Source of the DNA: Seison nebaliae
Lineage: Eukaryota
Length of the DNA: 49,246 nucleotides
Direction: 5' to 3'
Assembly (NCBI GenBank): GCA_023231475.1
Contig: JALJEE010001187.1
Location: 1-49,246, forward strand
The position numbers and the translations under genes are program-made. This document shows, piece by piece, positions 17,633 to 49,246 of this stretch; position 1 is the first letter of the stretch, and each line of letters begins with the position of its first letter. Below the pieces are notes generated by a model. It was given only the letters and a program-made list of their open reading frames with translations. It ran no database searches and was not told where the DNA came from.

Positions 17633-17813
17633 TATTATTATTATTGTTGCTAATCGTGCAATGCTGCTGTTGGGAACGATGATGATGATGTTGCTGATGA
17701 TGATTATGATTATGATGATGATGATGATTATGATGATGTTGCTGATGTTTGTATAGCGATGTAGATGACGACGTTGTTCTCTTCTCGTTACTTTCAAGAA
17801 TGAGAAGCGACAT
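14049..17813 (-). CDS. CDK5R1: CDK5 activator (p35/p39 family), 1,254 aa, with ~1,060-aa low-complexity N-terminal extension
   Basis: C-terminal domain has the p25 motifs LLRCLG, DKRLLQQGWQD, LACLYITFSYVGAEISYPLRPF and WNR; N-terminus has poly-H/N/Q/S/T tracts. Confidence 0.9.
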
Positions 17814-23439: not shown

Positions 23440-24541
23440 TCATTCTTCCTCTTCCAACGAATCAATTACTTCACACAAATATGGAAAAATATCAGATGTG
23501 ATAAATGACCTTTGATGGCTCTCACAAATTCGTTTCGTTGCCAATTTCATTATTTGTGTTGCTAATTTGGCAGCATGGAATCCGGTTATTTTCATTGAGA
23601 TTAATCCCGAAACTATTCCTGTCAAAATATCACCTTGTCCGCCACATCGACGTTTACAACCGTTATCTATTTCGCCCATCCATTGTACTGCTCCTTTCCT
23701 GATCATATCGGGATTGCCTTTATTGAGGAATATGATATTATCGTATAAATTCGTTAAGAGATCTAAGGCCAATTGTCGTTGCTAAAGAAGAAAAATAATT
23801 TTCAAAATTTTTGGCTTTTGTCCATAAAAATTGAACTTCAACTGATTTCTTTATTTTAAGTTCCGCCAATTGACATAATTCGACTATATTGGGAGTGAGG
23901 ATCGTAGTTGTCTTTCGGTTATTTATCGTTTTCAATGCATCACTCGTCCTCAAGAGATATAATGCATCCTGAATGAATTACATGAAAATTGAATGATTGT
24001 AAAAAAGGAAAAAATGGAAACGGCATCGATAATCATTGGAATATTGTCATTTTCTTTTAAAAATAATAATTTCTTTTTCATCATGGAAAATTCGGTTTCT
24101 AAAAAAAAGGAACTAGTGCAGTGGCGAGAGTCTTCTCATTCCTTCCTAATCCCGGACCACAAATGATGGCGGAGAATCGACTACAGATATTCCGATAATA
24201 TGACAAACATTCATTCATTTCTTGATGTCTAATAAAATTAGTTAATTATTAATTTCGAGGAAACTAACAATATTCCATGAACAATCAAATCAGGCGAATA
24301 ACTCTTTATTATTGGTGCAGCAGATTCGGTGCAGAAAATGTGCACTAAATCTCCACCTGACCTTAATGCTGCCATACCTGCAAAATATGGTGCACCACTA
24401 TACCTGTAAGTATGTGCGATGAAAAAAAGATATGAAGAGAATTGAGAACTGATCACATCCTCCAATAATGGCAATCTTACCACATTCACCTTTCATTCCA
24501 TTGAAAGAAAGTGAAGGAATTTTTAAAAGATTTCGACTCAT
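23440..24541 (-). CDS. NAXD: ATP-dependent NAD(P)HX dehydratase (NAXD/CARKD), 6 exons: 24541-24450, 24403-24269, 24228-24114, 24072-24022, 23968-23837, 23781-23440; ~288 aa
   Basis: Spliced product has [49 protein letters not shown], and [12 protein letters not shown]. Confidence 0.92.
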
Positions 24542-24638
24542 TTCTATTTAATTTCTTTCTTTTTTTCTTAATTTAATTCTTTTCTGACATTTGTCTCTAA
24601 CACATATTACCTATGAGTCTCTAACGTAAGAAGAGAAA

Positions 24639-24938
24639 TGACGTAGGGAAATAGACAGCCATAAATTTTAATGAAAACAAAAAAAAATTAAATGATTCTC
24701 ATGAGAGTGAAGAAAGGTAATTAAAGATGAGTTCATTTTTATAAGATGACCGTTTGTCTCATGATGAGAAATATTCGATTGAAAGACACGTCAATGTTAA
24801 GCATTACGTAAGTCGTGAATATGTTATCAATTTGATGGAAGCTGAAAATTCAAATGAGAAAAATTGAGATAAAATTTTTGAAAATAAAAAAAATTCAAAT
24901 GAATAAATTCAATTTGATAATCATTTAAGACTGACGTA
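24639..24938. promoter_or_regulatory. Divergent NAXD/HYOU1 promoter with TGACGT-core sites (24639, 24786-24793, 24932)
   Basis: TGACGTA twice and ACACGTCAAT; the latter 10-mer is identical to the one in the XBP1 promoter. Confidence 0.55.
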
Positions 24939-25143
24939 TCTTTAAATTGTAAGAGTGATTGTGTTCGTGTTTTAAAAGTTGATTGTAAATTGCAATAATT
25001 TTTTTATTCGATTTTATTTTCTTATAAAATTCTTCTCAAACTTTTTAATACATTTTTTTCTCCTCCTTTCTAGAACATTCATTCTTTTTTGCCTGTACAT
25101 TTTCTTTTGTAGTCGACTCTGTTTTTTCATTTTATCATAGAAA

Positions 25144-28100
25144 ATGAGACTGCTCATTTTATTGTTATGTCTCTCCATAGTCCATTGGATGGATTGTCGA
25201 GCAGTAGCGTCGATCGATTTCGGTGTGGAATATATGAAGATTGCTATCGTCAAACGAGGAGTTCCGATGACAATCGTATTGAATGCAGGGTCAGAAAGGA
25301 AGACGGTTAATGGTATGTCATTTCGAAATGGTGAACGAGGATTTGAAGATTCAGTCCGAATTAATTCTATGAAGAAACCGACAAGTGCATTTATGTATTG
25401 TCGAGATTTGTTAGGAAAACGGTCGATGGAAGATGAAACGGTGAAATTGTATTTGAAACGATTTCCGTGGATGAAGAAGATTTTATCGATCGATCAAAAT
25501 AATTTACTTTATTTCCAATTACCAACTGAATTGTTGAAGAATACAACAAAAATTACAAATAAAGAAGAAATCAGAAAATTGAGTGTTGTGGAAATCGTTG
25601 CCCACGTATTGAAATATGGAATTAATTTGGCGGAAACTCACGCTGAACAGAAGATTGAAGGAATCGTTGTTACAATTCCACCATTTTTCGGACAATTAGA
25701 AAAACGAGATTTTCTTGACGCTGTTGAAATGACTGGACAGAAATTATTACAATTCATCACAACAGATGTGGCGACTGGTCTTCATCACGGAATATTTCAG
25801 AGGAAACAAATTTTAAGTTCGGATGAGAAGAATGTGGAAAAAAAACCATTCATTATTGTCGATTCTGGTGCTGGTTCTACAACTGCCATTCTTGCACAAT
25901 ACCAGAAACATACGGTAAAAGAAGACGGTTATAGTGATACGGTGCCATTATTGAAAGTTTTAGGAATTGGATCAAAACCATTTAATGGTGGTCTCACATT
26001 GACATTGAAATTAAGAGATAATTTATTGAAACAATTTGCGGAGGAACGACGGAAAAAGAAGATTGATGATTTCAATCCCATAATGGAAAGTTTTGGACAG
26101 AAAGATTTGACTGATACTGATCGATGGAAATTATTTCAACGATTTTTTGCTGAAGCAGAAAAGGCCAAACGAATTTTGTCAGCTAATCAAGAAACCATTT
26201 TCCATTTAGAGGATGTATTCGATGGTGTAAATTTCCGTACACATATCAATCGAAATGATTTTGAGAAATTATTCGATGTTTCTGATTTCATCACTCCCAT
26301 ATATGACGCATTGGAAATGAGTGGGAAACAATTGAGTGAAATTTATACAATTCTCTTAATGGGAGGTAATACCAGATTGCCAATATTACAAAAGACGTTA
26401 GAAGATGATATGAAACCGACAATAATTGGGAAGAGTTTAAATACTGATGAATCGGCAGCGAATGGAGCTGTTTATCATGCCGCTTTCCTGTCTAAGGGAT
26501 ATGTTGTGAAAAAGTTTCTGGTAGAAGATATGTTGATCGAAGGAATCTCTATGACATTCCCAAGTGGAGAAGATAATGAGAAGATGTTGAATCGAGTTTT
26601 GTATTCAGTCAAATCGACATTTCCATCAAAGAAAGTTATGTCGTTTACGAAACATCTCACCAATTTCAATTTGAGTGCATCAGAAATATCGATTAATCGT
26701 AAATTTGCTCTCATTCAATTAAAGAATTTGACGGAAAGTATTGAATCGATGAAGAAAACTCATCATTTCAAAGGATTTCGATTACATTTCCTCTTAAATG
26801 ATTCGGGTTTATTCCATCTCGTCAATGGTGATGCATCATTCGAAAAGTTAAATTCAACTTCCTCCAACAATTCCACAAGTACAGAAGGAGATGATGATTC
26901 AACATTAACGAAAATCGGTAAAGGAATATCATCATTATTCTCATCGAAAGAAGAAGTGACGGTAAATAAAACGGAAAATAGAATAAATGAAACGATGAAA
27001 CAGTCAGAAAATAAGACAATAAATGAAGAGAAGAATAATAACATAACAATGAATTTGAATTCAACAAATTCGACGAAACCATTAAATGGAACGATGAAGA
27101 CGGAAGTGAAGAAGAAAAAGATGGTTCATAAAGAGAATATTTATTTCGAAGTAAATTATCCATTCGATATTGATCAGAAAACTTTAAGAATTTGGAAGAA
27201 GAAATTACGTTATGTTACGAACGAAGAGAATGAAAAGAAGAAATTAGAAAAGATAAAGAATGATGTTGAATCATTTATTTATAGTTGGAAAGATAAATTG
27301 ATGTATGATGATGAAGTGATTGATTGTTCGGAGGAAGAAGAACGAGAAAAAATAATCTCACAATTAACTGAAGCGAATGATTGGATGGAAGAATTACCAT
27401 TTGCTGATGAAACGATTAGTGTATTTGAAGAGAAATTAGCATTCTTACAAAAACTCACTATCGATCTTCAACGTCGTGTCAAAGAGAAAAACGAACGACC
27501 AAGAGCATTGATGGAATTGAAGAATACCATCAAATCTACTAATAATTTCCTTAAAGAAGTGAAGAATAAAACGAATGTGGCACATAGTTTGAAGAAGATG
27601 TTGAATTTGACGAAAGTGGATGAGAGCGATCCAATGATGAAGGCAATGATTGGCGACGGTCCATTATCAGCGACAGATATCGAGAAATTACATTCGAAAG
27701 TGAATGAAACATCTGAATGGCTCGAATCGAAAGAGGAAGAACATCCGATCAGTGAAAAAGACAGTTGTCCGAAAAACGTAAAAATTTATGAAAGTTTCAG
27801 TTCGAAAATCATCGTGGATAAACAAAGAAAATTGAGAATAGAAGTCGATCATTATCAAAAGAAAGTACAAACATGGCGTCCAAGTATGGATTATTTTAAA
27901 AATTTTCTCAATGAAACTGAATTGAATTACAAAAAATTAAATAAGACAAAATCGAACGAAACGATTGTAGAAGGTACGAATAGTCAAGAGAAGAACATAA
28001 CGACGGACAATTCGACAATGAAATCTGACACAAACAACAATTCCACCATTCAACCAGAGAAAACGGACGAACCGATCAAATTGGAAGTTGAAGAGAAACT

Positions 28101-28242
28101 GACAACGGACGAAAATTTCATTCCTCCAAATTCCAAAAGTACCAGTGAAAAGAATAATGATAAGGAGGAGGCGTCAAACAATGGAGAAAAGACGACTAGC
28201 AAACCAATCGATCCAGCAACTCACGACGCGATCGATTTATAA
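25144..28242 (+). CDS. HYOU1: Hypoxia up-regulated 1 / GRP170 (ER Hsp70-family nucleotide exchange factor), intronless CDS, 1,032 aa
   Basis: Signal peptide; SIDFGVEYMKIAIVKRGVPMTIVLN..ERKT; VVTIPPFF; AEKAKRILSAN; LMGGNTRLP; LNTDESAANGAVY; many N-glycosylation sequons. Confidence 0.95.
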   Translation: MRLLILLLCLSIVHWMDCRAVASIDFGVEYMKIAIVKRGVPMTIVLNAGSERKTVNGMSFRNGERGFEDSVRINSMKKPTSAFMYCRDLLGKRSMEDETVKLYLKRFPWMKKILSIDQNNLLYFQLPTELLKNTTKITNKEEIRKLSVVEIVAHVLKYGINLAETHAEQKIEGIVVTIPPFFGQLEKRDFLDAVEMTGQKLLQFITTDVATGLHHGIFQRKQILSSDEKNVEKKPFIIVDSGAGSTTAILAQYQKHTVKEDGYSDTVPLLKVLGIGSKPFNGGLTLTLKLRDNLLKQFAEERRKKKIDDFNPIMESFGQKDLTDTDRWKLFQRFFAEAEKAKRILSANQETIFHLEDVFDGVNFRTHINRNDFEKLFDVSDFITPIYDALEMSGKQLSEIYTILLMGGNTRLPILQKTLEDDMKPTIIGKSLNTDESAANGAVYHAAFLSKGYVVKKFLVEDMLIEGISMTFPSGEDNEKMLNRVLYSVKSTFPSKKVMSFTKHLTNFNLSASEISINRKFALIQLKNLTESIESMKKTHHFKGFRLHFLLNDSGLFHLVNGDASFEKLNSTSSNNSTSTEGDDDSTLTKIGKGISSLFSSKEEVTVNKTENRINETMKQSENKTINEEKNNNITMNLNSTNSTKPLNGTMKTEVKKKKMVHKENIYFEVNYPFDIDQKTLRIWKKKLRYVTNEENEKKKLEKIKNDVESFIYSWKDKLMYDDEVIDCSEEEEREKIISQLTEANDWMEELPFADETISVFEEKLAFLQKLTIDLQRRVKEKNERPRALMELKNTIKSTNNFLKEVKNKTNVAHSLKKMLNLTKVDESDPMMKAMIGDGPLSATDIEKLHSKVNETSEWLESKEEEHPISEKDSCPKNVKIYESFSSKIIVDKQRKLRIEVDHYQKKVQTWRPSMDYFKNFLNETELNYKKLNKTKSNETIVEGTNSQEKNITTDNSTMKSDTNNNSTIQPEKTDEPIKLEVEEKLTTDENFIPPNSKSTSEKNNDKEEASNNGEKTTSKPIDPATHDAIDL

Positions 28243-31200: not shown

Positions 31201-31770
31201 GATGAAGAAGTGAACTCTCCACTAACAACTGCTCTCGTCTTGACATTTCCAATTAACTGATGATGATGAAAATTTACATATTCATCCAACAACAAACGAA
31301 TAAAGTGGATGATGATGATGATGTAGTTGTTGTTTATAATGATGATGATGATGATGATCAATCGCCCTCTAATTTCCTACATGTTCCCATTTCTAAGAGG
31401 TGATAAGAATTCTATTTTGCTCTTCTATTCATATCATAGATCATAATTCTTCTCCCCTCAACCATCTTTTCGTTTATTCTTCCTGTTTATCAGCGTTTAA
31501 TTATCATCAGTTAAATGAGAAAAGGAAAAATCATTTAAACGATTCCATCCATTTGATTTGTGGAGAAATTCGATTTGTTTTCATTAAAACTTAATGATTG
31601 CGCAATTAAATTGAAGAGCAGTTTTTTTGGTAATGGAGTAAATTAATAATTTTCATTGTTTTCATTTCTCTTATGTAAGAGCAGACTTCTCACGTATAAG
31701 GTCAATTGGTGATAGAGAGTGATCTGATTACGAGTTAAAGAAAACAATTCGAACGAGTAATTGGAAAGAA

Positions 31771-33898
31771 ATGAACGAAAATAATATTTGTCCATCAGAA
31801 AATCTTATAAATTATCTATCGAATAATAATCAATTATTCCAACAACAACACCAACAACAACAACAACATCATCATCATCAGCAGCAACAGCAGCAGCAAC
31901 AACAATCACTTTCTCAGCAACAGCAGCAACAGTCATATGACGATAATAGAAATACGTTAAATGAACTAATAAAATCTGGTTTATTGAATGAGGAGTCGAA
32001 ATTGAGTACGATTGATCTTCAGATACCAAACGAAAATACGATGGAAATGATTCCATCAAACATTGCTACTAATTTCCTCGACAGTTGTGTTAATGGTAAA
32101 ATAATTAACAATGAATTGTTGAGAACGGAGAAGACTTGTTCAACCGCTGCTCCAACAACATCTCCATCCACAACAACAACAATAACAGCCACAGTGGATG
32201 GACGACCTTCTCTGATATCAGAAGACGAATCACGCCTCACAAATAACGATACACCAACAACATTATTAGGAGATACTCATCAAGAAATTAAAAATCATTC
32301 AATTAACAACAACAATAATAATAATAATAATAATGAGCATCCGAATAATGAACATATTATAGAGAATAATCCGACTATGTTAAATTCATTTAATGATGCC
32401 AATAACAACACGATAAAACAAGAAGGAAATGATGATTTGTATCAGATCAATTATGAGCAGTATATCAACGCATTAAACATTCAATCTGCATTGATGAACA
32501 ATGCATACCAACGACTAATGCAGAACGCTGCTGTTTCCAGCGGTGTTGCACAGCAAGTACTAATTCCATCTCAAGATGTGACTTGTCATCCATTACTCCA
32601 ACATTTAACGGCCAACTCTCTCCTTAACCAGAACTCCATTTCTTCCTACACAAACAACGTCTCAGGTAAAGATATGGTGAAACCGCCATATTCCTATATT
32701 GCACTCATTAGTATGGCAATCCAGCATGCTCCTTCTCAACGAGCCACACTCAATCATATTTATGCGTTCGTTATGGAAAAGTTCCCATATTATCGAGAGA
32801 ACAAACAAGGATGGCAGAATTCCATCCGTCACAATTTGTCTTTGAACGATTGTTTCATTAAAGTGCCTCGGGACGACAAGAAACCGGGAAAAGGATCTTA
32901 TTGGGCACTCCATCCCGATGCTTATAACATGTTCGACAATGGTTCTTATCTGCGACGACGTCGACGTTTTAAAAAACCGACTACCGTCAAAACGGAATCG
33001 AAGACTCTCCTCCCCCATAAACAAAACATGAACGAAATGAAAAACGAACGGAAATTTCCCTCAGAGAAAAAATCGAGAAAACGAACGTTCAATCAAATCA
33101 ATAAAGACGAACAACAGATGAATCATTCTCTTCAACACAAAAAGATGACGAAAGAATCGGAATCCGGTTCGCCAGTCCAATATCATGCCAATTCAACCGA
33201 TTCGACTAATACCGATTCTGCTTTGTCTATTGAAGGATCGACAACATCATCTACATCGTCATCGAACACTACAGCATCCAATTCTGCCATATCACCAACA
33301 TCAATGATTAATGCCAATTCAAATTACTTTCCAGTTCATCAGAATATTTTGACGGAGAAAATTCCCGACAATTTTCATAGTCCTAACAAGAATAAAATAG
33401 AGAATGAGAATGAACTGAACAATTCGAAACAGTTGATTAGCAATCCTTTTCTTCGCTCATATTACAATGAACAACGTAACGATCTAACATCAGAACCGGT
33501 TCCCAAAATACATTTGGATAGTGCCATGTCAAACTTCCCCAATCAATACCAATCACCAATTCCAATAAATTCATGTGAAATGAAGACGATTGATAGAAAC
33601 GACTCTAAATTAATTGAAGACAAATTATTATCATCAACATCCGCCACCACTTGGTACGAAAATAATTTTCCTGTTGGTTCTTTTTAATTCATTTCTTAAA
33701 CTTTTTTCCTCTTTCTTTTACAAATAGATGACGAATTGTGAACGAACTCCAAATGAAGATATAATGAAGAATTTCGTTCATAATGAACTCCGCCAGCAAA
33801 TCACAAATTTCTCAAATTTCAACTTCTCTCTTCCCAACAAGAGCAATTTGTCTGCCATGATGTCGTATATGCACAATTCATCTGTAAATTCGCAGTAA
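31771..33898 (+). CDS. FOXC: Forkhead box C transcription factor, join(31771..33672, 33728..33898), ~690 aa
   Basis: [19 protein letters not shown]...[35 protein letters not shown]...[17 protein letters not shown] closely matches the FoxC class; a predicted 55-nt GTT..TAG intron adds an open 56-aa exon. Confidence 0.92.
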
Positions 33899-34265
33899 AT
33901 TAATTTATAAGATAATTATAGATAATTCAAATAGTATTCTCCGTTTTTATTATCGTTTCCTTCTTCTCGTCTCCTCTACATTTATCCGTCATATTTCATA
34001 ATTTATCAAAACTTTATGTTGGTGAGTGAAACTCTTTTCTTTTTTTCATAATATTTTCTTCTTTTCTCAATTTGAAATTATTAAATTTAATTTTATCCAT
34101 TTTTACTTTAAATCTTCAAAATTCAAAACAGAGATCAACGAGAACATATAAAACAAATTAATTAAGATATTTTTTTTTGGTTAAAGTCGAATGATGATAA
34201 TTATTCATCACTATAATTGTTAAAACGAATAAATTAGTTTTGGAAATTGATTTTCTGTTTCCAAC

Positions 34266-35376
34266 TTATTTATTGATCTTCCTTCGATATAACGGATCCT
34301 TCTTCTACATGGTATTCAAATAAAATTCTAGGAAAGGAATCATATGAGGAAAGAGAACTTTTGATTTGCGATAATAATAATCCATTTCCGATTCACCAGG
34401 TTGACGGAAAGTTTCATCGCCTTGCAATTCTTGACGATATTGACGTAAGAATGGATGATCATCATCAGTTATTGGTGCATTGAGCACTTCGGGTGGTGGG
34501 GCACCAATTCCACTTTCGTCCATTCTCATATAACCGGGTGCCAATGAAGAGAATCCAGTAATTCCACCCATCGCTTGGTAGCCATGAACGACTTGACTAC
34601 CTGGTTCTCCTGGTAGTGGAGCTACTGGATGACCACGAGCAATTCTATCATCTCTAGTTTCTACGATTGTGCTATGTAGTTTCACCGCTTCACCACAATC
34701 ACACGTATAAGAACCAACGAATTGATTACAATTACATTTTCCTTTCTCTTATTAATATTATTTATTAATTATTAATTAAATTTATTAAATTAATTAAATA
34801 AAAGAATTAACGAGTACATGGGTAGGGATGTTTGGCGGAATGTTCATCTGTAAAATGTTTACATGTGCACCGGATCGGTCTCGAACCATTCTTCGGTACA
34901 TAATGATAAGCAGCACACAAACATTGACCGAATCGACATCTCAATTTGTACGGTTTCTTCAACTTCGACACATCGACATCTGTTTCATGTTGACGGTATC
35001 TGTTAATCCAGGAAAGAATGAAGGTGGATAAAAGAAGAGGAAATCATTTCGAACTTATGTCCACAGAAACAAGGAGTTTCCGGACCTACCAGCTTACAAT
35101 CCATACCTTTGCTGTTCGTCCAACTGACATACAACCGATTGAGAGCACGCTAGAAAAATGATTTTCTATAATTAGACTGAAAGGTAAGAGTAACATCTTT
35201 ATGTTGTTGCTTATATGCTTCGAATTCTTCAGGAGTAAACAACTTCCCATTATCATCATCGCCAACGATTCTTTTAGAATGAAAATGAAAATTCTCCCCC
35301 TCAAATACAACCTTTTATATTCCACATATTCATCGATATGCGCTGTAGGTGGAACAGGTTTCCTATTGTTTTCCAT
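34266..35376 (-). CDS. FAM221A: FAM221A (C7orf46) homologue, 6 exons: 35376-35312, 35270-35195, 35149-35055, 34999-34812, 34741-34359, 34304-34266; ~281 aa
   Basis: Spliced product has DEYVEYKRIVGDDDNGKLFTPEEF, NRLYVSW...GMDCKLVGPETPCFCGHKYRQH, PIRCTCKHF and AMGGITGFSSLAPGYMRMDESGIG, matching recalled FAM221A motifs. Confidence 0.92.
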
Positions 35377-35535
35377 CAATCACCAAAATGAATTATATTT
35401 TTTGGGAATGGAATATATTTTAAGAATGGAATAAATTTCAGAATTGAATCAAATGTTTTGTTGTCGAAACTAATTAAGAAAGTATTGAAAAGAAAAAGTT
35501 TGAAGAAAAAGTATTAGAAGAAAATTAGAAGTTCC

Positions 35536-35549
35536 GTTTCTATGGTGAC
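35536..35549. promoter_or_regulatory. RFX X-box upstream of FAM221A
   Basis: GTTTCTATGGTGAC fits RTHNYYWTRRNRAC at all 14 positions, 160 bp upstream of the ATG. Confidence 0.7.
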
Positions 35550-35938
35550 GGAAAATAATATTTATTTTGGAAGTATTAGCTTCCAAAAAAAGTGGGAAGC
35601 TATTTCGAATTGATAGTTTTACACCATCCAACTACATTTGTCGTTCATTATTTTTTTGAAGAAATATTAAAATTTCTGTTTGATTTGATTAAAAACAATT
35701 TTATTGTTATAAATTTGAAATGGATTTTGATATGAAAATAATAAAATTTGTCTGGATGAAAAATTTATATCACAAGTTGGAAGCACAAAAATTTAGAATT
35801 CTCTTTTTGCTGTTGTTTGTGTGGGAGGTGGAATTGAGGAAACATTAAGAGAATGACGATTTTGGAAATAAACATTTTGGAAATTTAATACTTTTTGTTG
35901 AAAATAACGATTTAGAGTCTGTATAAAATGAGGAGGAG

Positions 35939-36838
35939 TTATCTATTGAAATTTTTCACATCCAAAATGACCGTTGATTGTTGTTGACGAGACTCAGTTC
36001 TTCTTGGCGGTGACATATAAGTTGATTGTGTTTGTAATTGTCGAGCCATTCGTTCGGTGATTTGTCCATATTGTGGATGAATTATAACTTGTTCGTCATT
36101 CGAGAGTTCGTCGATCGAAAGTGAGAATTGTGGAGGTTGAATGGTTGAGATTCGTTTATGGTTTTTGGGCCATCGTTGACTTTTGAAGGAATGGCGAGTC
36201 CAATTCTCTCTGGGATGTTGATAAGATCGAGTACTTTGTCTAATCGGCCCATTATTTGATATGGTTGTAGCGACGGTAGCAGCTGAAGATGTAATATTTT
36301 CTTCTTCCGGATATAATTCGTTGTAATCGGGAGGAAATAAAAGTGATCGAATATCGTCGTATGTTGGTGGGGCTTGTTGTAAAGAGGAAGCGGTTGGACC
36401 ATGAACAGGCGACCAAATAAATAAAGCATTCCAATGTTGATTATCCCAATTATTTGAACGTTCACAATCATTGTTGTTGTTATTGTTATTATTACGGTTT
36501 GATCGTCGATTACTGATGAAACAAGAATTCGGTGCATTCCTTTGACATACGGCGACGGCTTTTGTACATAATCCAACACGAAAACATATACAACCGATGG
36601 ACAAGATGAGAAGAGATGTCAATCCAAAAACACTAATTAAGGCGCTTGCTGTCTCAATTCCTCGTTTGACATCGAGACTTCGATGGAAGAAATCTTGGAA
36701 TAAACTCTCATTCTTCTTTTTAACGAAATTAAATGTCGAGGTATTGTCGGAAGTTGTTGGTGTTGTTGTTGTTGATGGAATTGGTGTACCATCGACCACT
36801 AACCATATCAGAGTTGATATGATGAGAAAATTATTCAT
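35939..36838 (-). CDS. Type I single-pass membrane protein with two PPxY motifs (WBP1/VOPP1/PRR7-like architecture), 299 aa
   Basis: Signal peptide, short S/T-rich ectodomain with N-glycosylation sequons, TM followed by a Cys cluster, cytoplasmic PPTY and PPDY. Confidence 0.8.
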   Translation of the reverse strand: MNNFLIISTLIWLVVDGTPIPSTTTTPTTSDNTSTFNFVKKKNESLFQDFFHRSLDVKRGIETASALISVFGLTSLLILSIGCICFRVGLCTKAVAVCQRNAPNSCFISNRRSNRNNNNNNNNDCERSNNWDNQHWNALFIWSPVHGPTASSLQQAPPTYDDIRSLLFPPDYNELYPEEENITSSAATVATTISNNGPIRQSTRSYQHPRENWTRHSFKSQRWPKNHKRISTIQPPQFSLSIDELSNDEQVIIHPQYGQITERMARQLQTQSTYMSPPRRTESRQQQSTVILDVKNFNR

Positions 36839-37928
36839 TTCTGTATGACGAGAAAATGAAAAGACAATGAAAATATGTTCGTTTAAGTGTAGAAGAGGAA
36901 TGACAACGACGAAGACGTTGGAGGATGATGGAATGGAAGAAATTATTTGTGAGAAATGAAAGAAATTTCGTCGAATTTAAATGAAGCGAAGTAAAGCGAT
37001 TAATTAGTTGAGATGCATCACTAATTGGAAGTGTGGTAATTTGGAAGACATGAATTCGTTTCCAAGATAAATTGTAGGACGAAAACAAATTAATAATCGG
37101 AGAAAAACAGACACAGACAGAATATGATTTCGTTCCGCAATTCCGACATCTATTCCTTTATTTCGATCGGCAATTCATATTATTAATAGATTTATTGATG
37201 AATAACAATTGAATGGAGTAATGGAATCTGATGTAAATGAAATATTGATCGGCTATCTCCATTCATCTATCAACATTTCAAGTAGTTGGACACGTGATAG
37301 TCCAGTAAGAACGATTGAACTTCCGTGAGAGAAGATGTTATGAAAGAACGAATTCATATTCATTTCCGTATCTTCTTCCATAACGATTTCGAGAGATATC
37401 ACGTAAATGCAGACGAATTATGTACTTTTAGCATGTTGCTCAAATTCAACGATTTATTGTTAGAGAAACAAATGTTAAAGTGAAATCGAAGAAGAAGAAG
37501 AAGAAACTTTTGTCTTCCATTAGGAGAAGGAACGAACTAATAAAAGTCAAAGGAAAGACCAATAAATATATTGAACAGTTGGTTCAAAAATTTACTCTAA
37601 ACTCATTCTACTTAGCGAGAGATTTGGGAGAAATGACAAATTAATTCTTTTTCGAAACTCTATTAGGAAAATTGAGAAAACAGTTTCGTATGATCAATGT
37701 CGTCCGATTACATCACACAATCGTGTATTATCCAACTATCTACCGTGTAGATTAAGGGCGAGATAAATTCTTTAATTAGTTGAAAGAGTATCCACTTTTC
37801 AATTGTCTTCCGTCGACTCGATCCAGAGAGATATGGGAGTGGATATTAGATCTAAAAATGTGAAATGGTTTTCCTTTCGACAAATCTTCTTTCTTACTCT
37901 TCTCTCCTCCTCTAAGCACAACCACATT

Positions 37929-37958
37929 CACACACACACATATACACACACACACACA
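37929..37958. repeat. (CA)n microsatellite
   Basis: Directly visible. Confidence 0.85.
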
Positions 37959-40900
37959 GAGACTTAAAATTGCAATTTCCTTGCCTAAGGCGTAAAAGTT
38001 TTATTCTTCTTTAGTGTTTCTCTTATGTTACGTTAATATTTCGATATATCTCAATCCGAAATTTCACCTTATTATTCTTATTCTTATCATACTTCTCCTT
38101 CTTTTAATGCAATATGACGTAAGCTACTAGGAAGTTGATACTTCCTTGAGTTGGAAGGGAATAATGTTACCGAAGGAATTGATGGCGACAATTCTCGAGT
38201 CAATGTAGTAGTAGCGAGACTTTGATTCATATAGTTTTATGGAGAGGAGGAGTTATTAAGAATTCTCATTTCGGTTGATGAGGGCGACGATCAGACTTGT
38301 TGATGAAGTTGGAGATGGATTCTATTTGAAGGAATGATGTTGAAGGCAATTTGAGAATAGATGAGAATAAATATTAAGAGGAATGAACAGGTGATGAATC
38401 ACGATAAAACGAATCTTTGGTCACCAAAGTTTGGTGACCTATTTTCCTTGTGAACTATCACTTGCCAATTATTAAGAGAATAATACAAAAAATTCCATCA
38501 TATCACTTGAGTACTGACGTCTGATCATAATCATCATTATTATTAAGATGCTTATTGATGTCTTCAATTATCATGAAAACAAATGAAGAATGGAAATGGG
38601 AGAATAGAAATGGAGAAATCCTTTTTATGAAGATAAATTTGATGGAAAGAAAAAGCCGAATTTTGTTTAATGATGCGAAGCTATTGTTAGTTTCATGATC
38701 GGCTACTAATTCCGAAAGGAAGAAGAAAAGGAAAGCTTCCCATCAATTACAATCAGAAAATGGAAAACAAATAAACAAGTTCTTCACTTTCACCGTTGTT
38801 TAAAACAACGGTCCATTTCACTTTCATTACCACCAACTCGGAGGAAAGGTGGAAGATTAAAATTCTAATTTCAAATAATTTCAGACTTTTATTCCATTCT
38901 GATTTCCTTTAAACGAAGGTCCCTCATAAAATTCGATGTTTCCCCCAAAACTTGTTTTTACAAAATAAATAAAATGTCTAATTAACCTGTTTAATAAAAT
39001 GAGTTTGGTAAAATCTGTTTACTCGAAATATGTTATTGAGGGAATTGATTCCAAATCGAACATCAAATTAAAGAGAAGATTACGTAAAATGAAAAATATT
39101 TTTCAGTTAAGCTTAACCCAAAACTGTATAATAGTTTCAAGTAGGCGAAGTAGCTCGTAAGATTGTGTGGAGTAGTAGATGGTTGGAGAGTTAAGAACTA
39201 CTTTATTGTTCTTAAGTTGTTGGTAGATAAGAAAATCTTGTCGATTAAGGATTTATCAATTCCTTCTCATTTACTCCTTTATCTATCAATCAATTTGATA
39301 CATATGTACGATTTCGATTGATATTGGTTTAATGTAAATTTCTATATTTATTAATAAGTTCTTTCTTTCACTTTCGCAAGTTATTGACCTCGATTATCTA
39401 TTGGGTCCACTTTAGACATATTGGCGACAAGTTTTCTTCCCATCGATTGATATGGAGAATCAAGAGAACACTTCACAATCCGCCTATTTATCTCTTCATT
39501 ATCGATTGATTTTTCTGTCTGTCCGTGTGTTGGCAATCCTTCTCGATGATAGTTAAGGTTTTCATTCGGAACTCGCTTCCCTTTCTCCCATGGAATGTCG
39601 ACTTTCTACAAATGTGTTTCTTTCCTTCTTTTCATACTTGTGAACTGATAATGGAATGTATCAACAGAAGACAACAATGATAAGTAGAATAAATCCTAAA
39701 TTTATTGCAGATACATATGAATCAGTCAACAATTCACATAATAGAAAGAAATATCATTGAATTGTCATCCCTCTCTCTATGTGTGAGAGTTTCGACTGTT
39801 GTTGTTGTTGTTCTGTTTGCCTAATTCAATATTCGATAGCAATTGTTTGGGAGATAAATGGAAATTCGTATACAAACTCTATATTTCTTCGATATCCAAT
39901 GTCAAATGGACAATGGTCGAGTAATTGTATATTCTAATAATGAATTCACCTTAATATTATATTGACAAATTATCCTCAAGTAAATTTCATGGGAAGATAT
40001 AAACTGATATTGATATATGAACATCCTAATAATCTAACCGGCATGGAGAAAAATTATTATCTACAGGAACGGGACAATTTATTATGATTAGATTCCATAA
40101 TCTTCATAAAATTTCTTCTTTTTAATAATCTGCCTCTCCCTCCCCTCAAGACTATCTCTGGAAGCAGTCTACTTATTTCTGGATTGAGGCCGTACATCTC
40201 TCACAATTTGAAATGTTCGAACATCCTCACGAAACTCATCTGGATAATAAGTATACCGATCTACTATAATACATCAATGACGATCTCGATTTGCTTCTCT
40301 TAAGCTTTTGATAACCATCTTTAGATGACTTAATTCTGTTTCTCCATTCGTTGAAGATGAAACAAAAAACTTAAGAAGATTACTCGTTTTAAGGAAGGTG
40401 GCTCGATTGACTTCATTTCTTTTTAGGTCTCATTTGCCACTAACAATAATTAGACACATGAATCATTCTCCGATCCATTAACATTTGACGAAGAAAGGAA
40501 AGTTTAATGGGAAAAACACCTCGACTTATCATGATATTACGACATATGAAAGAAAGGAATTGTGTATTTCTCCAAATGAGAGAACATTTGGAGAAGAAAA
40601 TAATTTACTAACTTTTCATATCATGTGACAATCGTGTGAAACGGAAAATAGATAAACTAGTCAGCTATCTTTAGCATGACTGGAGAGGATGGAAAGCATA
40701 AATCAGCTGGACGTTTGTCATCTCAGAAGGAAATGGAGGAATAATGTTTATGAATACTGATAAGGGAAGTTTTGGAATGAGGCGAATAATAAAGGACGAA
40801 TAATCTAGATCGAAGTGAAGTGAATGGGTGAATGAATGATAAAATATAAATAGAATACAGTCTCATCGAAAATGGAACTTGGTCACTCAGTTCGAGTGTA

Positions 40901-43843
40901 CATCCTTCGTGCCCCGAATTAAGAGAATGGTCAACTCTATTAATATGTCAATCAAAGTTTTATTTAAATAATTCTCCTATTACTACGGGGACCATAATCG
41001 AAGAGCAGTTTTAGAAGGATTTAGATGTGCAAGAGAGGAGGGGGAGAAGGATAATTATTCATCAGAATGCTAAAGAAATAATAATAATTATCGTTTGCCA
41101 ACTTGATGAACATGCACAAAGATAACGGAAAGGAAAACTTTCGTATGCAGATGAGCATATGGTCAACTAATCCTCCAATTCTATATCTCTCCCCGAATTC
41201 AATTATTGGCAGTTCATTGATAGGAACTTGGCGGTTTCAAGTTTTTTGGATGATATTATTACTATCTATATCCCGCACAATACACACATATATTATCGTC
41301 GGCATCCGATACAATCTGACAGAGATTGTTCCCTCGAAGAATTTCATTCATCTCACTCCATCATTGCACTTCCAATATTTGCATGCGAATCATTAAGAAA
41401 ATAATAAGTAAACATCTAACATTGCCAATAAATATCGATTCAAACAATTGACGATGAGGATGATGATGATATTGTTAGATAGAAATCTTCATCTTCTTCA
41501 AATAGTCATAGTTATCGAGAATGAAAGGAGCATTATCCGAACCAAATCCTAAAATTTCGAGGTGGTATCGTATTAATCGAAAATAATAACACATCAAATG
41601 AGATACATTAGACAATCTTATTATTCTTATATTTCATCATCTTCTCCAACCGACATATCGATTGCAATTACACACTCTCTCATATATTCTGTCGTCGTCA
41701 CCACCACCATCACCACTACCATCGGAGAGATACGGACGATTGAATAAAAATAATTTGTCGCCGATCGCCACACAACCATCGTCACACAGAGATTGGAGTT
41801 GAATACGATGAAATGATTACAATTACATTAGAGTGAGATGGAGAATATTTGGATGAGAAAGAACAGGAAAATTTACAGATATATTCGACAAAAATTTCCC
41901 TCCCGAGCAACATAATAATTTGTGTCATATTTTCATTTGAATGTTTCCGTCACTTTAACCGAATGATTAAGGAAAGACATTCTCCTTTCAAGTAGCCTAT
42001 TAGTAGAATGTTGAAATTATTATTAGTTCTCTCATCATGAATTTGATCCAAACGATTCACATGAGAACGAAGAGACTTAATAGAATATTCAATTTGGAAT
42101 TGCGGTAAGTCGACGACAATCGTCGATTCGTGCACATAATTCATAAGAGTGGCAATGTGTCTAATCGTAGGAGAAATAGGAAATATTCTTGCCAATACTC
42201 GTAGAATCTGATAATGGGAAATACCATCAGTTCATATATCAATGACATTGAATCGACACTGACATTAGAAGCGGAAATGAGATGACAGTAAATCTCTTGG
42301 CACATGACATACTAATGCATCATATCTCTCCATATATTCCCTTCGATATGTTACATTCACTCGTCAACATCTGATGGTGAGTACACATTGGAAGAATGTT
42401 TCTCTCTAATTGCTTTTCATATAGAAACATGAAGAAAAGAATTTTCTTTTCAAAAGAAATTAGGTTACACCAAATAAATATTATTTTTTAAATAAAAGAA
42501 AGAAAATAAATTGACGAGTATCATTATAATTGAGCGCATCATTGTCAATTTGGAGCAGATTAATTTAAGTGGAAAAAGAATTAAGAAGACGACATCGACG
42601 ACGACGATAACCAGAAAGCAAGATGATGTAATCGATTTATTGATGAGAAGAAGAGAAAGAAAAGAATTGATGAGGAAAATAAAAGTTTCCACCTTCCTCA
42701 ATTAGTCGTGTGAGTGGGACACTTGTGTAAATGAAGACACGAGAGAGACACAGAACTGGTAATAGGAGTCGAATGATGGATTTGTTCCGATTAATTAATT
42801 CTGTCAATATGAAACATCATCAATACACTCACATCCTCCCAATTTATTAGCATCTGTTAATGTGTTCTCATCCCGAAAAGATAATCTCCCAAATTAATTT
42901 ATTAGCAGTCCACTCACAACTTCACTGGATGAAGAGGAAGAGAATTGATATGATTAAATTACTTTTATAATGATAGTGATGATGATCGAAAATAATGTTT
43001 CTTCAAGACGATAACACAACTTTCCATTATCAATAAAAATTAATTAATAAAATTATATTCCAACTTATAATTTCGAAGTCAATTTCAAATGAATTCCAAT
43101 TGGTAATTATTCCGATGGAAATTATTCTCTGTCATTGTGAAATGAATAAAACTGATAAAATAATGAACGATCGAGACACGATATCATTGACACTAACATC
43201 TTTCTATAATATGCATCTGTTCGTCATGTGACTGAAATAATTTGAGACTATGATCCATCGTCTACTCAGATGATGCTCTCTAGAGAAATACAGACTCCAA
43301 CATCACATAACATTGTGGATGAAGAAAGTAGAATGAAGGTCGAAGTAAAATATCATCAATTTCCAATAAATTATTTTCACTTTTCTTCTCCTCCTTCTCT
43401 CACCTTTTCCATCCATCATCATTTCAGAAAAGAGAATTTCATTTTATTCAAAACTATTTTACAGCATATCTCAAAATCAATCAATAATATCTAATAATTT
43501 TCTTTTCATAAATTTATGGAAAAGAACAAAAAACTTTTCTTATTATTCTATTCAATTTCCCTTCAAACTTTTTTTTCGATCGATATTGAGCATTAGATTC
43601 AGAAAACCGAAATTAAAGAAAATATTATGGAATAATTATTTTATTAAAAGAGAAATAAAAAAATGTTTATGAAACGTTCTTGAGTGAGGACATTCCAAAA
43701 TAATATCGTTAAAATTAGAAAAAAATACTTGAATGCTTTTGATGCGAAAAACAAAGTGGATTGGAAACAAGTCGAGTAGAATAAATGAAAAAAATACGGT
43801 TTTTCAAAATTTTTAAATCAAAATTATTTACAAAATTTCGAGG

Positions 43844-46768
43844 TTATAATTTGTGTGGTAAATTGTGGAATTGAGGATTGGGTGAAGTGCTGTCTCTCTC
43901 TACTGTCGTAGCGTCTTCCGTATCTTCTTCCAAATCGATTATTTTTGGCTTCTCATCTGATAAAGTCTGTGGAAAAAATTTTAAATTAATTATTTCAGAA
44001 AAATGATAATTTAAGTTCAATATTTATGAAGTGATAAAATGGACATATGTTCGACGTATAATTGGATGGAAATTGAATGATATAAAATTAGTGATAAAGT
44101 TCAGACGAGTAACAATGTTAAAACTTTCATAAGAAATGTTAACATGTCAAATGTTTGAAAGAAAAGAAATTTAATTTTTTTTTAGTCTTTCAACTACTTC
44201 GACTAGATTTTTGAGAAATATCTTCTAATTTAAATGGTTAGAATTAAACGAGTATAAAATTCAATTTCCGATTTTATTAATTAGCATGATAATTTCGAAT
44301 ATTAACTTTATAATCGTCAGAATCTGAATCAGTTCCTTCCTCATTCAACGTTGAGCCAATTTTAAGATTGTTTAATGTTTCGGTGGATGAATCGATGTCA
44401 TTTTTAAAGAGTTCGCCATCTTTATTCGTTTCGCCCAACTGTTGCGATGAGAGATGAAAATAAAAATATTTTCAATTTTAAATCAAACCGTATGAAGATG
44501 GAGAGCAGTAATACTCATGATCATTTGTGCTCGATCTTCACTCTTCTTTGGTATACGATAAGCTTCATTCATCATTGATGATGCGAAACTATTATTGATG
44601 GATTCGCTAAAGAAGAAAATGAATTTGAATAAATGAAATAAATCGAACTTGACCAATGTTGAGTCAGATGTAGTGTGATCAATGTTGAAAGTATCATTTC
44701 GTATAATGGCACCAGATAACGCATATTTCTTCGAATCCGCTAATCGAGTATCATAATATTGAGAAGCCATTAATTTTTTGTAAACGGTATTATTCTTGGA
44801 ATCGGATGGTGGACGAGAAGTGATCATCGAATTATCCATTGTCATCGGATCGATATTTGACATTTCCATTCCTATCGTTTTATTTTGTGAATCTTTCACA
44901 CGTTGAATGAATTGTTCATCTGACGGATGGTTACATTTCCATGAAGGATTCATATAATGGAAATTCATGAGAGACAATTCTAATTTACCATCCATCATTC
45001 CTGGATGACGATCATCTTGAAGAAATGGATCGTTCGATTTGAAAACGGCATTCGCTGAATATTTGGCAGTGTTGAATAAACCTAGATCGCAAATATCGCC
45101 GATATCTTTCGTCTCTTTCGTATAATAAGAGAAGAATGAGAGCATTTCATTTGATTTGGGTCGAACATAATAATATAATGCCAATGGTGTCATGATGGGT
45201 GAAAGTAATTCTTCTAATAACCAAACGAAAGTATATTGGAACATATCGGCCAATTCATTACGAGTAGTTGATGATTTGGGATTTTGTCTCCATTCGTTCG
45301 GCATATAATGAATTTGACTCAATAAAATTTTCATTTGTTCTTCCGGACAAAAGACCACCCAATCTTTTGGAATCATCGCTCGACAGAAATTCGAGATTAC
45401 TAAACACGACGCCACTATTTGGAGAAGATGATGAACTTTCAATACATCTTCGTCAATGTAAGCGAGGAAGAGAATGGAGACGAGTACCGCTCCAGAAATA
45501 TAAGAAATGAAATTGCAAATTATCGTTAATAATGGAACAGGAAATGAATCGAGATATTGTGTAGCTGGTCGATACGCTTTCCTCAATCTCAATTCTAACT
45601 CATGATCCAATTCGTTCAAATGTCTCAAATAATATTTACCATAATAACTCCAGCGACGTAATCCCAAAACCGTCGGATCTGATTTTAACATTTCCGAATA
45701 TTTGAAGAGAATATTCAACATTCGCCATAATAAGATCACTGGCGATAAGAGGAAATTTATAAGACATAAAAATAAAATGGTTTGGGATAATCTTCTCTCT
45801 TCCTCCACTTGCACTTTCTTATATTTCTGTTTCAATCGACAATTCGTATCGAAAAATGAGAATCTCGCCCCATGTATCAAATATCTGATATTTGTCAATA
45901 ATCCCGACGGTAAATAAACGATATCTCGTCCCCAAATTGGTATGTAGAATTTGAAGTCGAGAACTTTCCTATTCATCATTGCCACCAGATAATTGTCATA
46001 ACGTAAAATGATGTTATTTATATCTAGAATACTCAATTCCGTTTGGAAACCGATTTTATTATATTTCTGACGTTCCACTAATTTCTCCACGATATTCTGC
46101 CATGCCATTTCCGAGAAATCAGACTAAAAAAAATTTTCTTTCTTAATTATTAAATTAATATGAAAAAATTAACTTCATTAATTTGAAGAATTTTCTTATA
46201 AAAATTTCCTACTTCTCGATAATCGATTAATCGACGTATTGCATGATACGCTTCCCACAAGAAATAGATAATAATAACAAGAATTACCAAAACGGTGAAT
46301 GTGTCAAATCTTGAAAAAATATAATTAAAAGTACAAATGAGAAATGAGGAACCGTTTTGCACATTCTTCTTTTGAATAGAACACGTCAGAAATTGATAAT
46401 TTCCTATGAATCGTCGAATTGTTTCCTGGTCGTTCGTCGAACAACAATGGATAATTCACACATTTCACCAACACAATAATTAGTACAGTAACGAAAACGA
46501 ATTGCCTATGACGAATTGGAGAATTGAGATGGTTAAAAGGAGGAAATGTTAACAATAATTTCAAAAGTGATTTAAGAACGGAACAAACGAATCCACTTTG
46601 ATGGAAATATTCATAAAGTCGAATAATAAACTCGTATTTTTCTAAGAAGAATTACATTCGAATTCGAATTAATAAAATATTTTAACTTCCTTCATTCGGT
46701 TGCATGATATAAGGAACTGGTGGTTGCATTGGATCCAAATCTCTCAATTCTTCATATTGATAACTCAT
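43844..46768 (-). CDS. ATG9: Autophagy protein ATG9, predicted exons 46768-46687, 46641-46554, 46505-46353, 46309-46174, 46123-44649, 44606-44489, 44438-44307, 43966-43844; ~768 aa
   Basis: ILRYDNYLVAMMN, LRHLNELDHEL, HYMPNEW, LEELLSPIMTP, IGDIC, GKLELSLMNF; N-terminal exons give YEYFHQSGFVC...QFVFV. The last exons are less certain. Confidence 0.93.
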
Positions 46769-47144
46769 TCTCCTCAATAAAATTTATGTAAAATACACTC
46801 CTGTTTTTCTGATTTACATTAAAATATTTTATACAAATATATGTTTGTATATGAATTAATAGAAAAGAGATGTTAGTCAAACACTTCCTCTCCATCATCA
46901 AATGGGAATAAGAAAGAATTTCTTTTCGAATTTTAAGCAAAAAAAATGTTGGGAAAATATTTCTAAATTCTCTGCGAAATTATTTCGCTCATCTTCCCAT
47001 CAATCACACAATCCTCTAGTTACGTATTCTGATAAGGAAATACGATTTACCTTTTTTTACAGTTAATTTATTTCTTCTTCTAAAAAATATTTTTTCTTTT
47101 CTCAAAAATTTAAAAAATATTTTCTTCATCACTTCGGGTGTGGC

Positions 47145-47956
47145 TCATTTTGTTGATCGGGGAGTAGTCCAATTCTCATTCTCATTCTCTTGACTGAGCG
47201 TTCGATAGAGAAATTTATTTCGAGTCTCCATTGAAATCGGAGCTCTCTTCAACAATTCTTCGACGGCTGTTGTTGAATTGAGTTTATCTACATAAATCGG
47301 TTGAAGTCTAAAATTTAATTTAATTTTAATATTTCTTTTTCTGATGGGAAAAAAGTGAACTGTTCAGTTGATCGAATTTTTCGCTCCGTTGCAGGACTAA
47401 ATTTAATTTAATTTCAAAGTTAAAATAAAAGAGAATAAAGAAAACGCTTTATTTTCTATCGCTCGTTCGACAATCGTCGCTAATTGATTTCCGAGAATCT
47501 CCGATAAATTCTCTTTGTTCGATAATTTACTTTCCTTTTTATTCTTATTCTTCAACACAACTTCATTCTTCTCGTCGTTTTCGGATGACGTTTGTGTCGT
47601 AGAGAAAACGTCGTTCCATGCTCTCAATTTCGGTCCGTTCAAAGCTCTCGCTGGGAGATAATTCGATTTCTCTTCCGCTAATAACCAGAAATGAGAGGAA
47701 TTGAATTAATTTTGATTTTAGGAAAACCTGTACCAGTACAAAGGATTTCTTTTATATTTTTCAATGTTTCATTGAATGCTTCTAAATAAAGCCTCTTGGT
47801 TGATCGAAATCTCTCTTCGCTCAATCGATTATTAATACTCTGCTGCAAACTGAGCTGTTGCTCCAGTGTATTACGTTGTTTAATGAGAGTTGTATAGCGT
47901 TCCGAATAATAGTCAGTCATTTTTTCACTACAAATCGATTTTTCATTTCGACTCAT
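47145..47956 (-). CDS. Unknown protein with N-terminal coiled-coil, 4 exons: 47956-47728, 47677-47446, 47396-47361, 47307-47145; 219 aa
   Basis: Three AT-rich 49-53 nt GTT..TAG introns with compatible phases give a continuous ATG-to-TGA frame; no family recognised. Confidence 0.7.
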
Positions 47957-48437
47957 TTTTTCAAAAAATTCTAAACGGATGACGAGTAATTTATATAAAC
48001 AACTTAAATGAAAATGAACGTTCCAACTCAATTTGTATAAAGAGAGAGAAGACGATGACCGAAAGTGAAAACAATTCTAATCTATAGAGAGTTTCAAGAC
48101 ATTTAATAAAAATTATTTTTCTATTCTCTTCCATTTTATTTCCCACGTAGAGAATAAATTACTTGAAAGAATCAGATTGTGTGGAATGACTATAGATTAT
48201 TTACAATTATAACTTTACTAAAAAATAAAAAAAAAATTAAAATAAATAGATATTTATTTATTGATGTTCAAGACGGATTTCTTGACGGAAGAATAGAAAA
48301 TAAATATGTGGTTTCCCGAATAATAGTAGAAGTGCTTTTTTCCATTTATCTCTTCCTATTTATAATCCTCCTCTGTACAAACCCTCTGTTTTTATCTCGT
48401 TTTTCACAGGTTTCCTACATCACTCCCCTCCGAATAT

Positions 48438-48828
48438 CAGAAAACTATATTTTTTTTTGCACTTTTTGTGCAAATATTTAAGCGTTCAGCAGGGTGCCTA
48501 ATTCTGAGTCGATTTTTATGAAGTGGATCTCAAATTAATCGTCTATTATTTCTTAACTTATGTTTAAGATTTCATGTCAATAACGTCGATATTCTTCTTT
48601 TTATAGATAAAAGTATAAGAAACATTAATTTTCAATTTCGAGAAGATCAATAATTTAAAAATGCGAGCAAAAATGCAATTCGCGGCTATCATTCGGACAA
48701 GACGATACGTATAAGATTAATAGACGATCAATTTGAGATCCACTTCATAAAAATCGACTCAGAATTAGGCACCCTGCTGAACGCTTAAATATTTGCACAA
48801 AAAGTGCAAAAAAAAATATAGTTTTCTG
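48438..48828. repeat. 111-bp near-perfect inverted repeat (48438-48548 / 48718-48828, one mismatch) with 169-bp spacer; probably a MITE or part of a non-autonomous DNA transposon
   Basis: Arms compared base by base: 110/111 complementary; no clear target-site duplication. Confidence 0.85.
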
Positions 48829-49246
48829 TTACCAATTTTTAATAAAAATCTGTATTTTTGGGTTATCGAGGATGCTGAAGAAGATAGGGTAATTTAAATT
48901 TTTCAATCAAGTAAAATTTCTTGGATAATGCAAAAAAACCCTTTTCGAACAATGCTCAATAATTACATAATTATTGGATTTTTAAAATTTTTTTTTTAAT
49001 AATCTGTATCACTTCTTCATGCGGAAACCGAATATTCTACTTAAAATTAGATACTTTTAAAATTTCTCAACCTATAATATTATTTTCGAATCTCAAAAAT
49101 AGATGAAAATGAAGTTTGTTAATTAATCGATTATTTGACGACGATTTTTAAATTTATTTTTGTCGAAGTTAGAACTATTTGAAAGAGCTTGAATTGGGCT
49201 ATCTAACAGTATGCTCCCTTAAGCATATAATGCTATTTGAAGAAAG

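Follow-up and report, generated by a model that had tools for sequence, protein, structure and literature searches.

Animal introns usually begin with GTA or GTG, and some compact animal genomes, such as those of nematodes and astigmatid mites, carry a raised minority of GTT donors. Pairing of U1 with human donors in a register shifted by one base was reportedly described by Roca and Krainer in 2009. Here we analyze the intron donors (5' splice sites) in a 49,246-nucleotide (nt) stretch of DNA, hereafter the window, from Seison nebaliae, a minute sea animal related to rotifers (assembly GCA_023231475.1, contig JALJEE010001187.1, positions 1 to 49,246). The introns are genuine and confirmed by transcripts; they are short, have GT-AG ends, and start with a signal made up of GTT and a brief run of U at +8/+9. 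The Seison splicing machinery has likely been re-tuned to demand U at the third intron base (+3). All GTT statistics rest on one contig and four genes with confirmed introns, namely: NAXD (SNEBB_006471), FAM221A (SNEBB_006474), ATG9 (SNEBB_006476) and an unnamed gene. It should be noted that what is taken from the cited papers and their supplements refers to the portions of these sources that were available.

Two classes of animal U2-type donors have been described, NN//GURAG and AG//GU (Parker, Fica and Simpson, PMC11732430). They make up 53.6% and 45.1% of human donors, about 99% in all (PMC11732430), and 44% and 32%, i.e. 76%, of C. elegans donors (PMC11347140). The Seison introns share with these classes the GT-AG ends, ancestral positions and removal from messenger RNA (mRNA), but only 2/21 of their donors fall into either class (GURAG 0/21, AG//GT 2/21; p=2e-10 against the C. 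elegans rate).

The closest likeness is Entamoeba (Roy and Bowser, bioRxiv 10.1101/2022.06.08.495308), also an AT-rich, host-associated lineage with +3U as a rule. Both show a U preference just past the donor hexamer, at +7 in Entamoeba and at +8/+9 in Seison. However, Entamoeba, a protist with few introns, has a co-evolved U1 and a strict GUUUGU(U) donor that keeps +5G. In Seison, an animal whose four genes studied here carry 4-7 introns each, only +3 is fixed, and both +5G and -1G are lost (4/21 each). Another lineage-wide change at a single position is the switch from +4A to +4U in Saccharomycotina, which is tied to the loss of METTL16 and SNRNP27K and attributed to the hand-over to U6 rather than to U1 (PMC11732430). 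It differs from the Seison case in affecting +4, where U is under-used in Seison, instead of +3, and in having occurred in intron-poor yeasts rather than in an intron-bearing animal. Finally, the weak donors assisted by TIA-1/Nam8 (PMC9311317) have, as in Seison, a U-rich tract right behind a donor that matches U1 poorly. These donors are a minority regulatory class elsewhere and would be the default in Seison, and the likeness leaves the invariant +3U unexplained.

In the literature searched, which included few subscription papers, we found no account of a Seison, rotifer or acanthocephalan donor consensus, nor of such a rule in another animal. The available portions of PMC10125929, PMC13161344, PMC11347168, PMC4856993, PMC9311317 and PMC10599564 contain no mention of a GTT donor rule. 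As a kind, +3U donors are already known from Entamoeba, and what sets Seison apart is the animal host and a three-letter code without +5G or -1G.

Transcript-supported donors and intron anatomy

The original prediction, made from the DNA letters alone, listed 21 introns that all begin with GTT. All 21 donor hexamers are present in the sequence as given, and the accompanying tallies (+3T in 21/21, +5G in 5/21 and -1G in 4/21) are reproduced on that set, which includes a candidate FoxC intron. Transcript evidence comes from Mauer et al. 2021 (PMC8351084), whose Additional file 2 places assembled transcripts on the genome by GMAP. It contains at least 30 rows for contig k141_4315, with coordinates identical to those of the window. 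Among the rows listed there are 25 distinct gaps, and 20 of the 21 predicted introns coincide with one of them base for base. Among the equivalent slides of each such gap, a single placement gives GT-AG ends, and it is always the GTT one. The transcripts thus use the predicted donors at 20/21 introns, and for these 20 they dispose of the concern, raised with the prediction, that a phase-compatible GT had been picked with bias. One additional gap, a 49-nt intron in the 5' untranslated region (UTR) of the unnamed gene (48019-47971), had been missed and also begins with GTT. The remaining four gaps (1, 9, 15 and 17 nt) are not GT-AG and were excluded from the intron count; the 17-nt gap is the XBP1 segment described below. 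The FoxC intron stays inferred because no row covers it among those listed. Consequently, the RNA-supported set consists of 20 listed introns plus the new 5' UTR intron, and GT-AG ends together with removal from mRNA are found in all 21 RNA gaps of at least 40 nt. The transcript names suggest a genome-guided assembly, which carries a bias towards GT-AG and none towards any +3 base, and assembled isoforms are not read counts.

The NCBI proteins P0121 (NAXD), P0122 and P0001 map back exactly to the window, with 17/17 introns at the predicted donors and a single GT-AG placement each. Since the NCBI annotation may have been built from the same RNA, this back-mapping is not independent evidence. 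Donor choice was therefore also scored with profile hidden Markov models (HMMs) built from non-Seison homologues only (119 NAXD, 119 ATG9 and 25 FAM221 sequences), considering all GT or GC donors and AG acceptors within 60 nt that keep the frame open. The annotated donor is the best, or within 0.3 bit of the best, in 17/17 cases. For 13 of the 17 introns, every non-GTT donor as well as retention is either closed or at least 4 bits lower, while NAXD intron 5 and ATG9 introns 5, 6 and 7 are not pinned by the HMMs and are pinned by RNA. DNA contigs from runs X1 and X2 show no differing letters in the pieces listed across 32347-48211.

GTT accounts for 21/21 RNA-supported donors, against 88/265 of the GT sites that the four transcription units leave unused (Fisher p=4e-10). 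T follows 37.4% of the 4,398 GT dinucleotides in the window, a rate at which 21/21 has p=1e-9; against the 49% T of intron bodies, p=3e-7. Treated as independent draws, the introns put the share of GTT at 0.87 or more (one-sided 95% lower bound). The base composition of the individual introns predicts 9.9 T and 6.5 A at +3, and 21 T and 0 A are found (p=0.0003 for A); pure composition is rejected on this count.

The +3T is as invariant as +1 and +2, whereas -1 and +4 to +7 vary freely. In the RNA-supported set, -1G and +5G are each present in 4/21 donors, +6G in none, and neither -1G nor +5G in 14/21; A is found at -2 in 11/21 and at -1 in 10/21. Beyond +3, the only position to survive correction for about 80 tests is +9 (T in 18/21 vs. 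9.9 expected, p=0.0002, about 0.016 corrected). The excess of T at +8 (17/21, p=0.001) is nominal and lost after that correction, as are an excess of C (9 vs. 3.3, p=0.003) and a deficit of T (4 vs. 9.9, nominal p=0.008) at +4.

Sites of the usual animal type are available and unused. FAM221A intron 1 has an in-frame GTA at 35308, 3 nt downstream of its donor, which is unused in the transcripts and scores 6.1 bits lower in the HMM. The unnamed gene has in-frame GTA donors 6 and 12 nt upstream of intron 1, including the one at 47733, that are likewise unused. In the ATG9 3' UTR, GTA sites at 43797 and 43728 pass the intron-like filter, yet are unspliced and lie within an ungapped 340-nt transcript block in three isoforms. 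Across three genes, 14 canonical-looking GTR sites with 7-8/11 matches are unused. Decay could mask out-of-frame decoys; in-frame and UTR decoys are less likely to be masked in this way.

The introns are 40-64 nt long in 20/21 cases and 340 nt in one, and their bodies contain about 49% T and 6% G, compared to 18% G in the flanking exons. Acceptors are TAG in 12, CAG in 5 and AAG in 4 of the 21 RNA-supported introns (AAG at 24073, 34748, 35271 and 46310). T makes up 0.48 of the last 20 nt, like the intron average, so there is no distinct pyrimidine tract. The AAG acceptors and the lack of such a tract suggest that the reading of the 3' site may also be relaxed. Branch-like hexamers occur in 12/21 of the originally listed introns, at no fixed position and counted with no control set. 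Furthermore, 8/21 RNA-supported introns are still present in one or more of the assembled isoforms, and the one newly identified in the 5' UTR in 4/5; this could reflect inefficient splicing or pre-mRNA.

Introns of the window. Transcript gap, gap among the rows listed for k141_4315 in PMC8351084; NCBI protein, exact back-mapping; HMM, pinned by homologue profile.
Feature	Position	Strand	Donor, acceptor, length	Evidence and remarks
NAXD intron 1	24404..24449	-	GTTCTC, 46 nt	transcript gap, P0121, HMM margin 46 bits; retained in 1 isoform
NAXD intron 2	24229..24268	-	GTTAGT, 40 nt	transcript gap, NCBI protein, HMM
NAXD intron 3	24073..24113	-	GTTCCT, AAG acceptor, 41 nt	transcript gap, NCBI protein, HMM; retained in 1 isoform
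NAXD intron 4	23969..24021	-	GTTTCC, 53 nt	transcript gap, NCBI protein, HMM
NAXD intron 5	23782..23836	-	GTTCAA, 55 nt	transcript gap, NCBI protein; HMM alone insufficient
FoxC candidate last intron	33673..33727	+	GTTGGT, 55 nt	inferred only, from 56 further codons of open frame
FAM221A intron 1	35271..35311	-	GTTGTA, AAG acceptor, 41 nt	transcript gap, NCBI protein, HMM; position common to other animals
FAM221A intron 2	35150..35194	-	GTTACT, 45 nt	transcript gap, NCBI protein, HMM
FAM221A intron 3	35000..35054	-	GTTCGA, 55 nt	transcript gap, NCBI protein, HMM; ancestral position
FAM221A intron 4	34748..34811	-	GTTAAT, AAG acceptor, 64 nt	transcript gap, NCBI protein, HMM
FAM221A intron 5	34305..34358	-	GTTCTC, 54 nt	transcript gap, NCBI protein, HMM
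ATG9 intron 1	46642..46686	-	GTTAAA, 45 nt	transcript gap, NCBI protein; retained in 1 isoform
ATG9 intron 2	46506..46553	-	GTTAAC, 48 nt	transcript gap, NCBI protein; retention cost 21.7 bits
ATG9 intron 3	46310..46352	-	GTTCCT, AAG acceptor, 43 nt	transcript gap, NCBI protein, HMM
ATG9 intron 4	46124..46173	-	GTTAAT, 50 nt	transcript gap, NCBI protein, HMM
ATG9 intron 5	44607..44648	-	GTTCGA, 42 nt	transcript gap, NCBI protein; not pinned by HMM
ATG9 intron 6	44439..44488	-	GTTTGA, 50 nt	transcript gap, NCBI protein; GTA alternative only -0.7 bits (HMM), unused in transcripts
ATG9 intron 7	43967..44306	-	GTTAAT, 340 nt	transcript gap, NCBI protein
Unnamed gene, new 5' UTR intron	47971..48019	-	GTTCAT, 49 nt	gap in 1 isoform, retained in 4
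Unnamed gene intron 1 (first coding intron)	47678..47727	-	GTTTTC, 50 nt	transcript gap
Unnamed gene intron 2	47397..47445	-	GTTTTC, 49 nt	transcript gap
Unnamed gene intron 3	47308..47360	-	GTTCAC, 53 nt	transcript gap
Negative control, ATG9 3' UTR	43679..43797	-	two GTA sites, U tract and AG at 50 and 62 nt	unspliced

How the third intron base may be read

These results are best explained by donor recognition having changed at the level of the lineage; the genome-wide validity of this reading is extrapolated from the four genes on one contig. This part of the original prediction stands, and U1, U6 and a protein, which it put forward, are candidates for the changed component. An Rfam scan of the window returned no match and the window holds no snRNA (small nuclear RNA) gene, and splicing-factor terms sought in the available portions of both PMC8351084 supplements gave no matches.

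As to mechanism, we tentatively prefer, with somewhat less than even confidence, a scheme in which intron definition is followed by a hard check for +3U at the U6 stage. Introns would first be located by their length, low G content and U tract, and a TIA-1/Nam8-like protein would probably assist U1, as such proteins bring U1 to weak donors via U-rich tracts (PMC9311317). The exact cut site would then be fixed after U1, at the stage of the U6 ACAGA box. The +3 base faces G44 of U6, and SNRNP27K influences the choice at +3 (PMC11732430, PMC11347140); a G-U wobble in a remodelled pocket would accept only U, or else a changed U6 box or changed chaperone (SNRNP27K, Prp8 region) would do so. As the preference hardened, old GTR donors would have been converted genome-wide.

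Intron definition is suggested because a standard U1 pairs with the true donors no better than with GTT decoys. For 17 donors and a U1 5' end of the standard type (locus L073, from 128 loci of standard U1 pattern in public contigs), the duplex energies are -1.5 kcal/mol for true, -1.4 for unused GTT and -3.2 for unused GTR sites (p=0.87). In addition, an invariant +3 among free neighbours looks like the all-or-none check at +1/+2, unlike U1 pairing, which is additive, with mismatches compensated across the donor site (PMC11732430). The under-use of +4T would fit, weakly, a methylated U6 that still disfavours +4U.

Several points weigh against this scheme. The stage of the +3 check is read from the donor profile alone, and the 21 introns sampled belong to four genes of a single contig. 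C is absent from +3 (0/21), though it pairs with an unchanged U6 G44 better than U does, and therefore an unchanged U6 alone does not explain the pattern. Pairs in the normal U1 register number 61, vs. 49.0±5.5 in shuffles that keep GTT (p=0.02); this residual signal means that U1 pairing is not absent. Moreover, Entamoeba, the best-documented +3U lineage, changed its U1 and kept the U6 ACAGA box (bioRxiv 10.1101/2022.06.08.495308).

This last precedent leads to the foremost rival, a co-evolved U1, with an A opposite +3 in its 5' end, as the main cause, which is possible and, in our judgment, rather unlikely. Five Entamoeba species combine GUUUGU donors with an ACAAAC U1, and Mastigamoeba has a third matched donor/U1 variant (bioRxiv 10.1101/2022.06.08.495308). 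An A opposite +3 would give every Seison donor one extra pair, and the residual normal-register signal at -2A (11/21) and +8T (17/21) points the same way. However, the full Entamoeba hexamer is found in 0/21 donors here, in which +4 to +7 are free, vs. 88-90% in Entamoeba. Since -1 and +4 to +7 are nearly unconstrained, the A opposite +3 that the original prediction called for would give only three consecutive pairs and so explains less than in Entamoeba, whose whole hexamer is strict. Nor does the A variant set the true donors apart from GTT decoys by stronger pairing (-2.15 vs. -2.25 kcal/mol, 17 donors), and several lineages with atypical donors keep U1 unchanged, including 69/69 yeasts (bioRxiv 10.1101/2022.06.08.495308). 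We favour the U6-stage check over a compensated U1 as the main cause; both could operate together.

Cyanidioschyzon exemplifies a U1 that is degenerate or lost. A more radical form of the U6-stage scheme, which we regard as doubtful, is that the major spliceosome of Seison largely lacks base-pair reading by U1, which may be degenerate or lost, that a three-letter GUU code is read through a rewired U6 box or active-site pocket, and that introns are found by length and U-richness alone.

The next two explanations leave the machinery relaxed or its snRNAs unchanged, and both are improbable. In the first, +3U is merely tolerated in short, U-rich introns and filled in by AT-biased mutation. The 49% T of intron bodies, the relaxed look of most other donor positions and the retention of 8/21 introns, which could mean weak splicing (or pre-mRNA), agree with such drift. 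Yet drift would not fix a single position while its neighbours stay free, +3 departs from composition as given above with +4 and +5 being T-poor, and available GTA donors are passed over. In the second, a standard U1 pairs in the +1-shifted register, with its A7 opposite +3U, as at atypical human donors (PMC4856993). This accounts for +3U, +9U (18/21) and -1A (10/21) with no snRNA change, and pairs in this register number 63, vs. 51.7±5.7 in GTT-keeping shuffles (p=0.03). However, the normal register shows at least as large an excess, the key G-C pair (+6G with U1 C4) is found in 0/21 donors, and +8, which should be A, is T in 17/21; the last two findings led us to reject the shifted register.

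It is slightly less probable still that the GTT pattern is local to the contig or genes rather than lineage-wide. Only four genes on one contig were examined, and a GTA candidate (46 nt) that is not pinned lies upstream of HYOU1. On the other hand, the four genes are unrelated housekeeping genes and concur, gaps in the available portions of the genome-wide transcript map are mostly of similar short length (PMC8351084), and one spliceosome serves the whole genome.

The least credible origin, bordering on negligible, is that the introns are copies of an introner (a mobile element) with a GTT end, or degenerate U12-type introns, even though intron length is uniform and positions +4 to +9 often carry C or T, with a loose resemblance to U12 donors: the best score over 190 intron pairs is 33, vs. 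30.1±3.2 for shuffled pairs, with no terminal inverted repeats, and neither the RTATCC donor nor the CCTTRAY branch motif of U12 introns occurs (0/21 each), so that both forms are rejected. Two FAM221A intron positions common to other animals also speak against them. In the shared-position test, which covered FAM221A introns 1 and 3, similarity ends precisely at the intron 3 junction in 38 of the 50 homologues that carry the RY[KR]QH motif, and at that of intron 1 in 4/12 homologues, as predictions that stop at exon borders or skip exons would show. Two or more intron positions would then be ancestral, and therefore old donors would have been converted rather than new introns inserted.

Other features of the window

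The unnamed gene (47145-47920, minus strand) is spliced and encodes 207 amino acids (aa). A Pfam search gave no convincing family, and an Atlas search of its first exon gave only weak bacterial look-alikes below recognition level. At the 5' end of HYOU1 (25095-25140, plus strand), an acceptor-like end directly precedes the ATG. The only GT that gives an intron of 40-55 nt there is a GTA site (46 nt), a candidate exception to the GTT rule, and no row covers it among the transcript rows listed. The contiguous open reading frames (ORFs) of FoxC (7 starts) and HYOU1 (4 starts) were absent from the protein collections in all exact look-ups, which is consistent with spliced models and does not prove them.

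Long single ORFs cover five genes, namely: a G protein-coupled receptor, a 2,092-aa protein, two CDK5 activators and XBP1. The 2,092-aa ORF (4570-10848, minus strand) is intronless and has no Pfam family, and one ungapped 6.8-kb transcript spans it among the rows available. The two CDK5-activator paralogues (11997-13013 and 14049-17816, minus strand; 324 and 1,254 aa) are adjoining and also intronless.

IRE1-type introns of XBP1 in other animals are 20-29 nt long. The Seison XBP1 gene (minus strand) contains a shorter, 17-nt segment (22324-22308) between two CNG|CNGN motifs, which is likely an IRE1-type, non-spliceosomal intron. Its removal converts a 657-aa frame into a 772-aa frame, and exactly these 17 nt are missing in one of two assembled isoforms (PMC8351084). 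In the minimum-energy fold, a hairpin forms at the second loop only.

Two repeats were also observed. The one at 48435-48831 has inverted arms of 127 nt that are 94% complementary, resembles a miniature inverted-repeat transposable element, and lies in high-copy DNA with a depth of up to about 100-fold background. The contig start (202-435) carries tandem 15-16 nt repeats and inverted copies of them.

Meaning for donor choice in animals

Nearly all animal introns are taken to have a purine at +3 and to follow the see-saw between -1G and +5G. The GTT rule matters for predicting genes in this group because the usual donor models would prefer the GTA/GTG sites that go unused. With +3U fixed and both compensating signals dropped, Seison provides a natural test of whether donor choice is decided by U1 pairing or by the hand-over to U5/U6, and it also bears on the co-evolution of cis signals and snRNAs.

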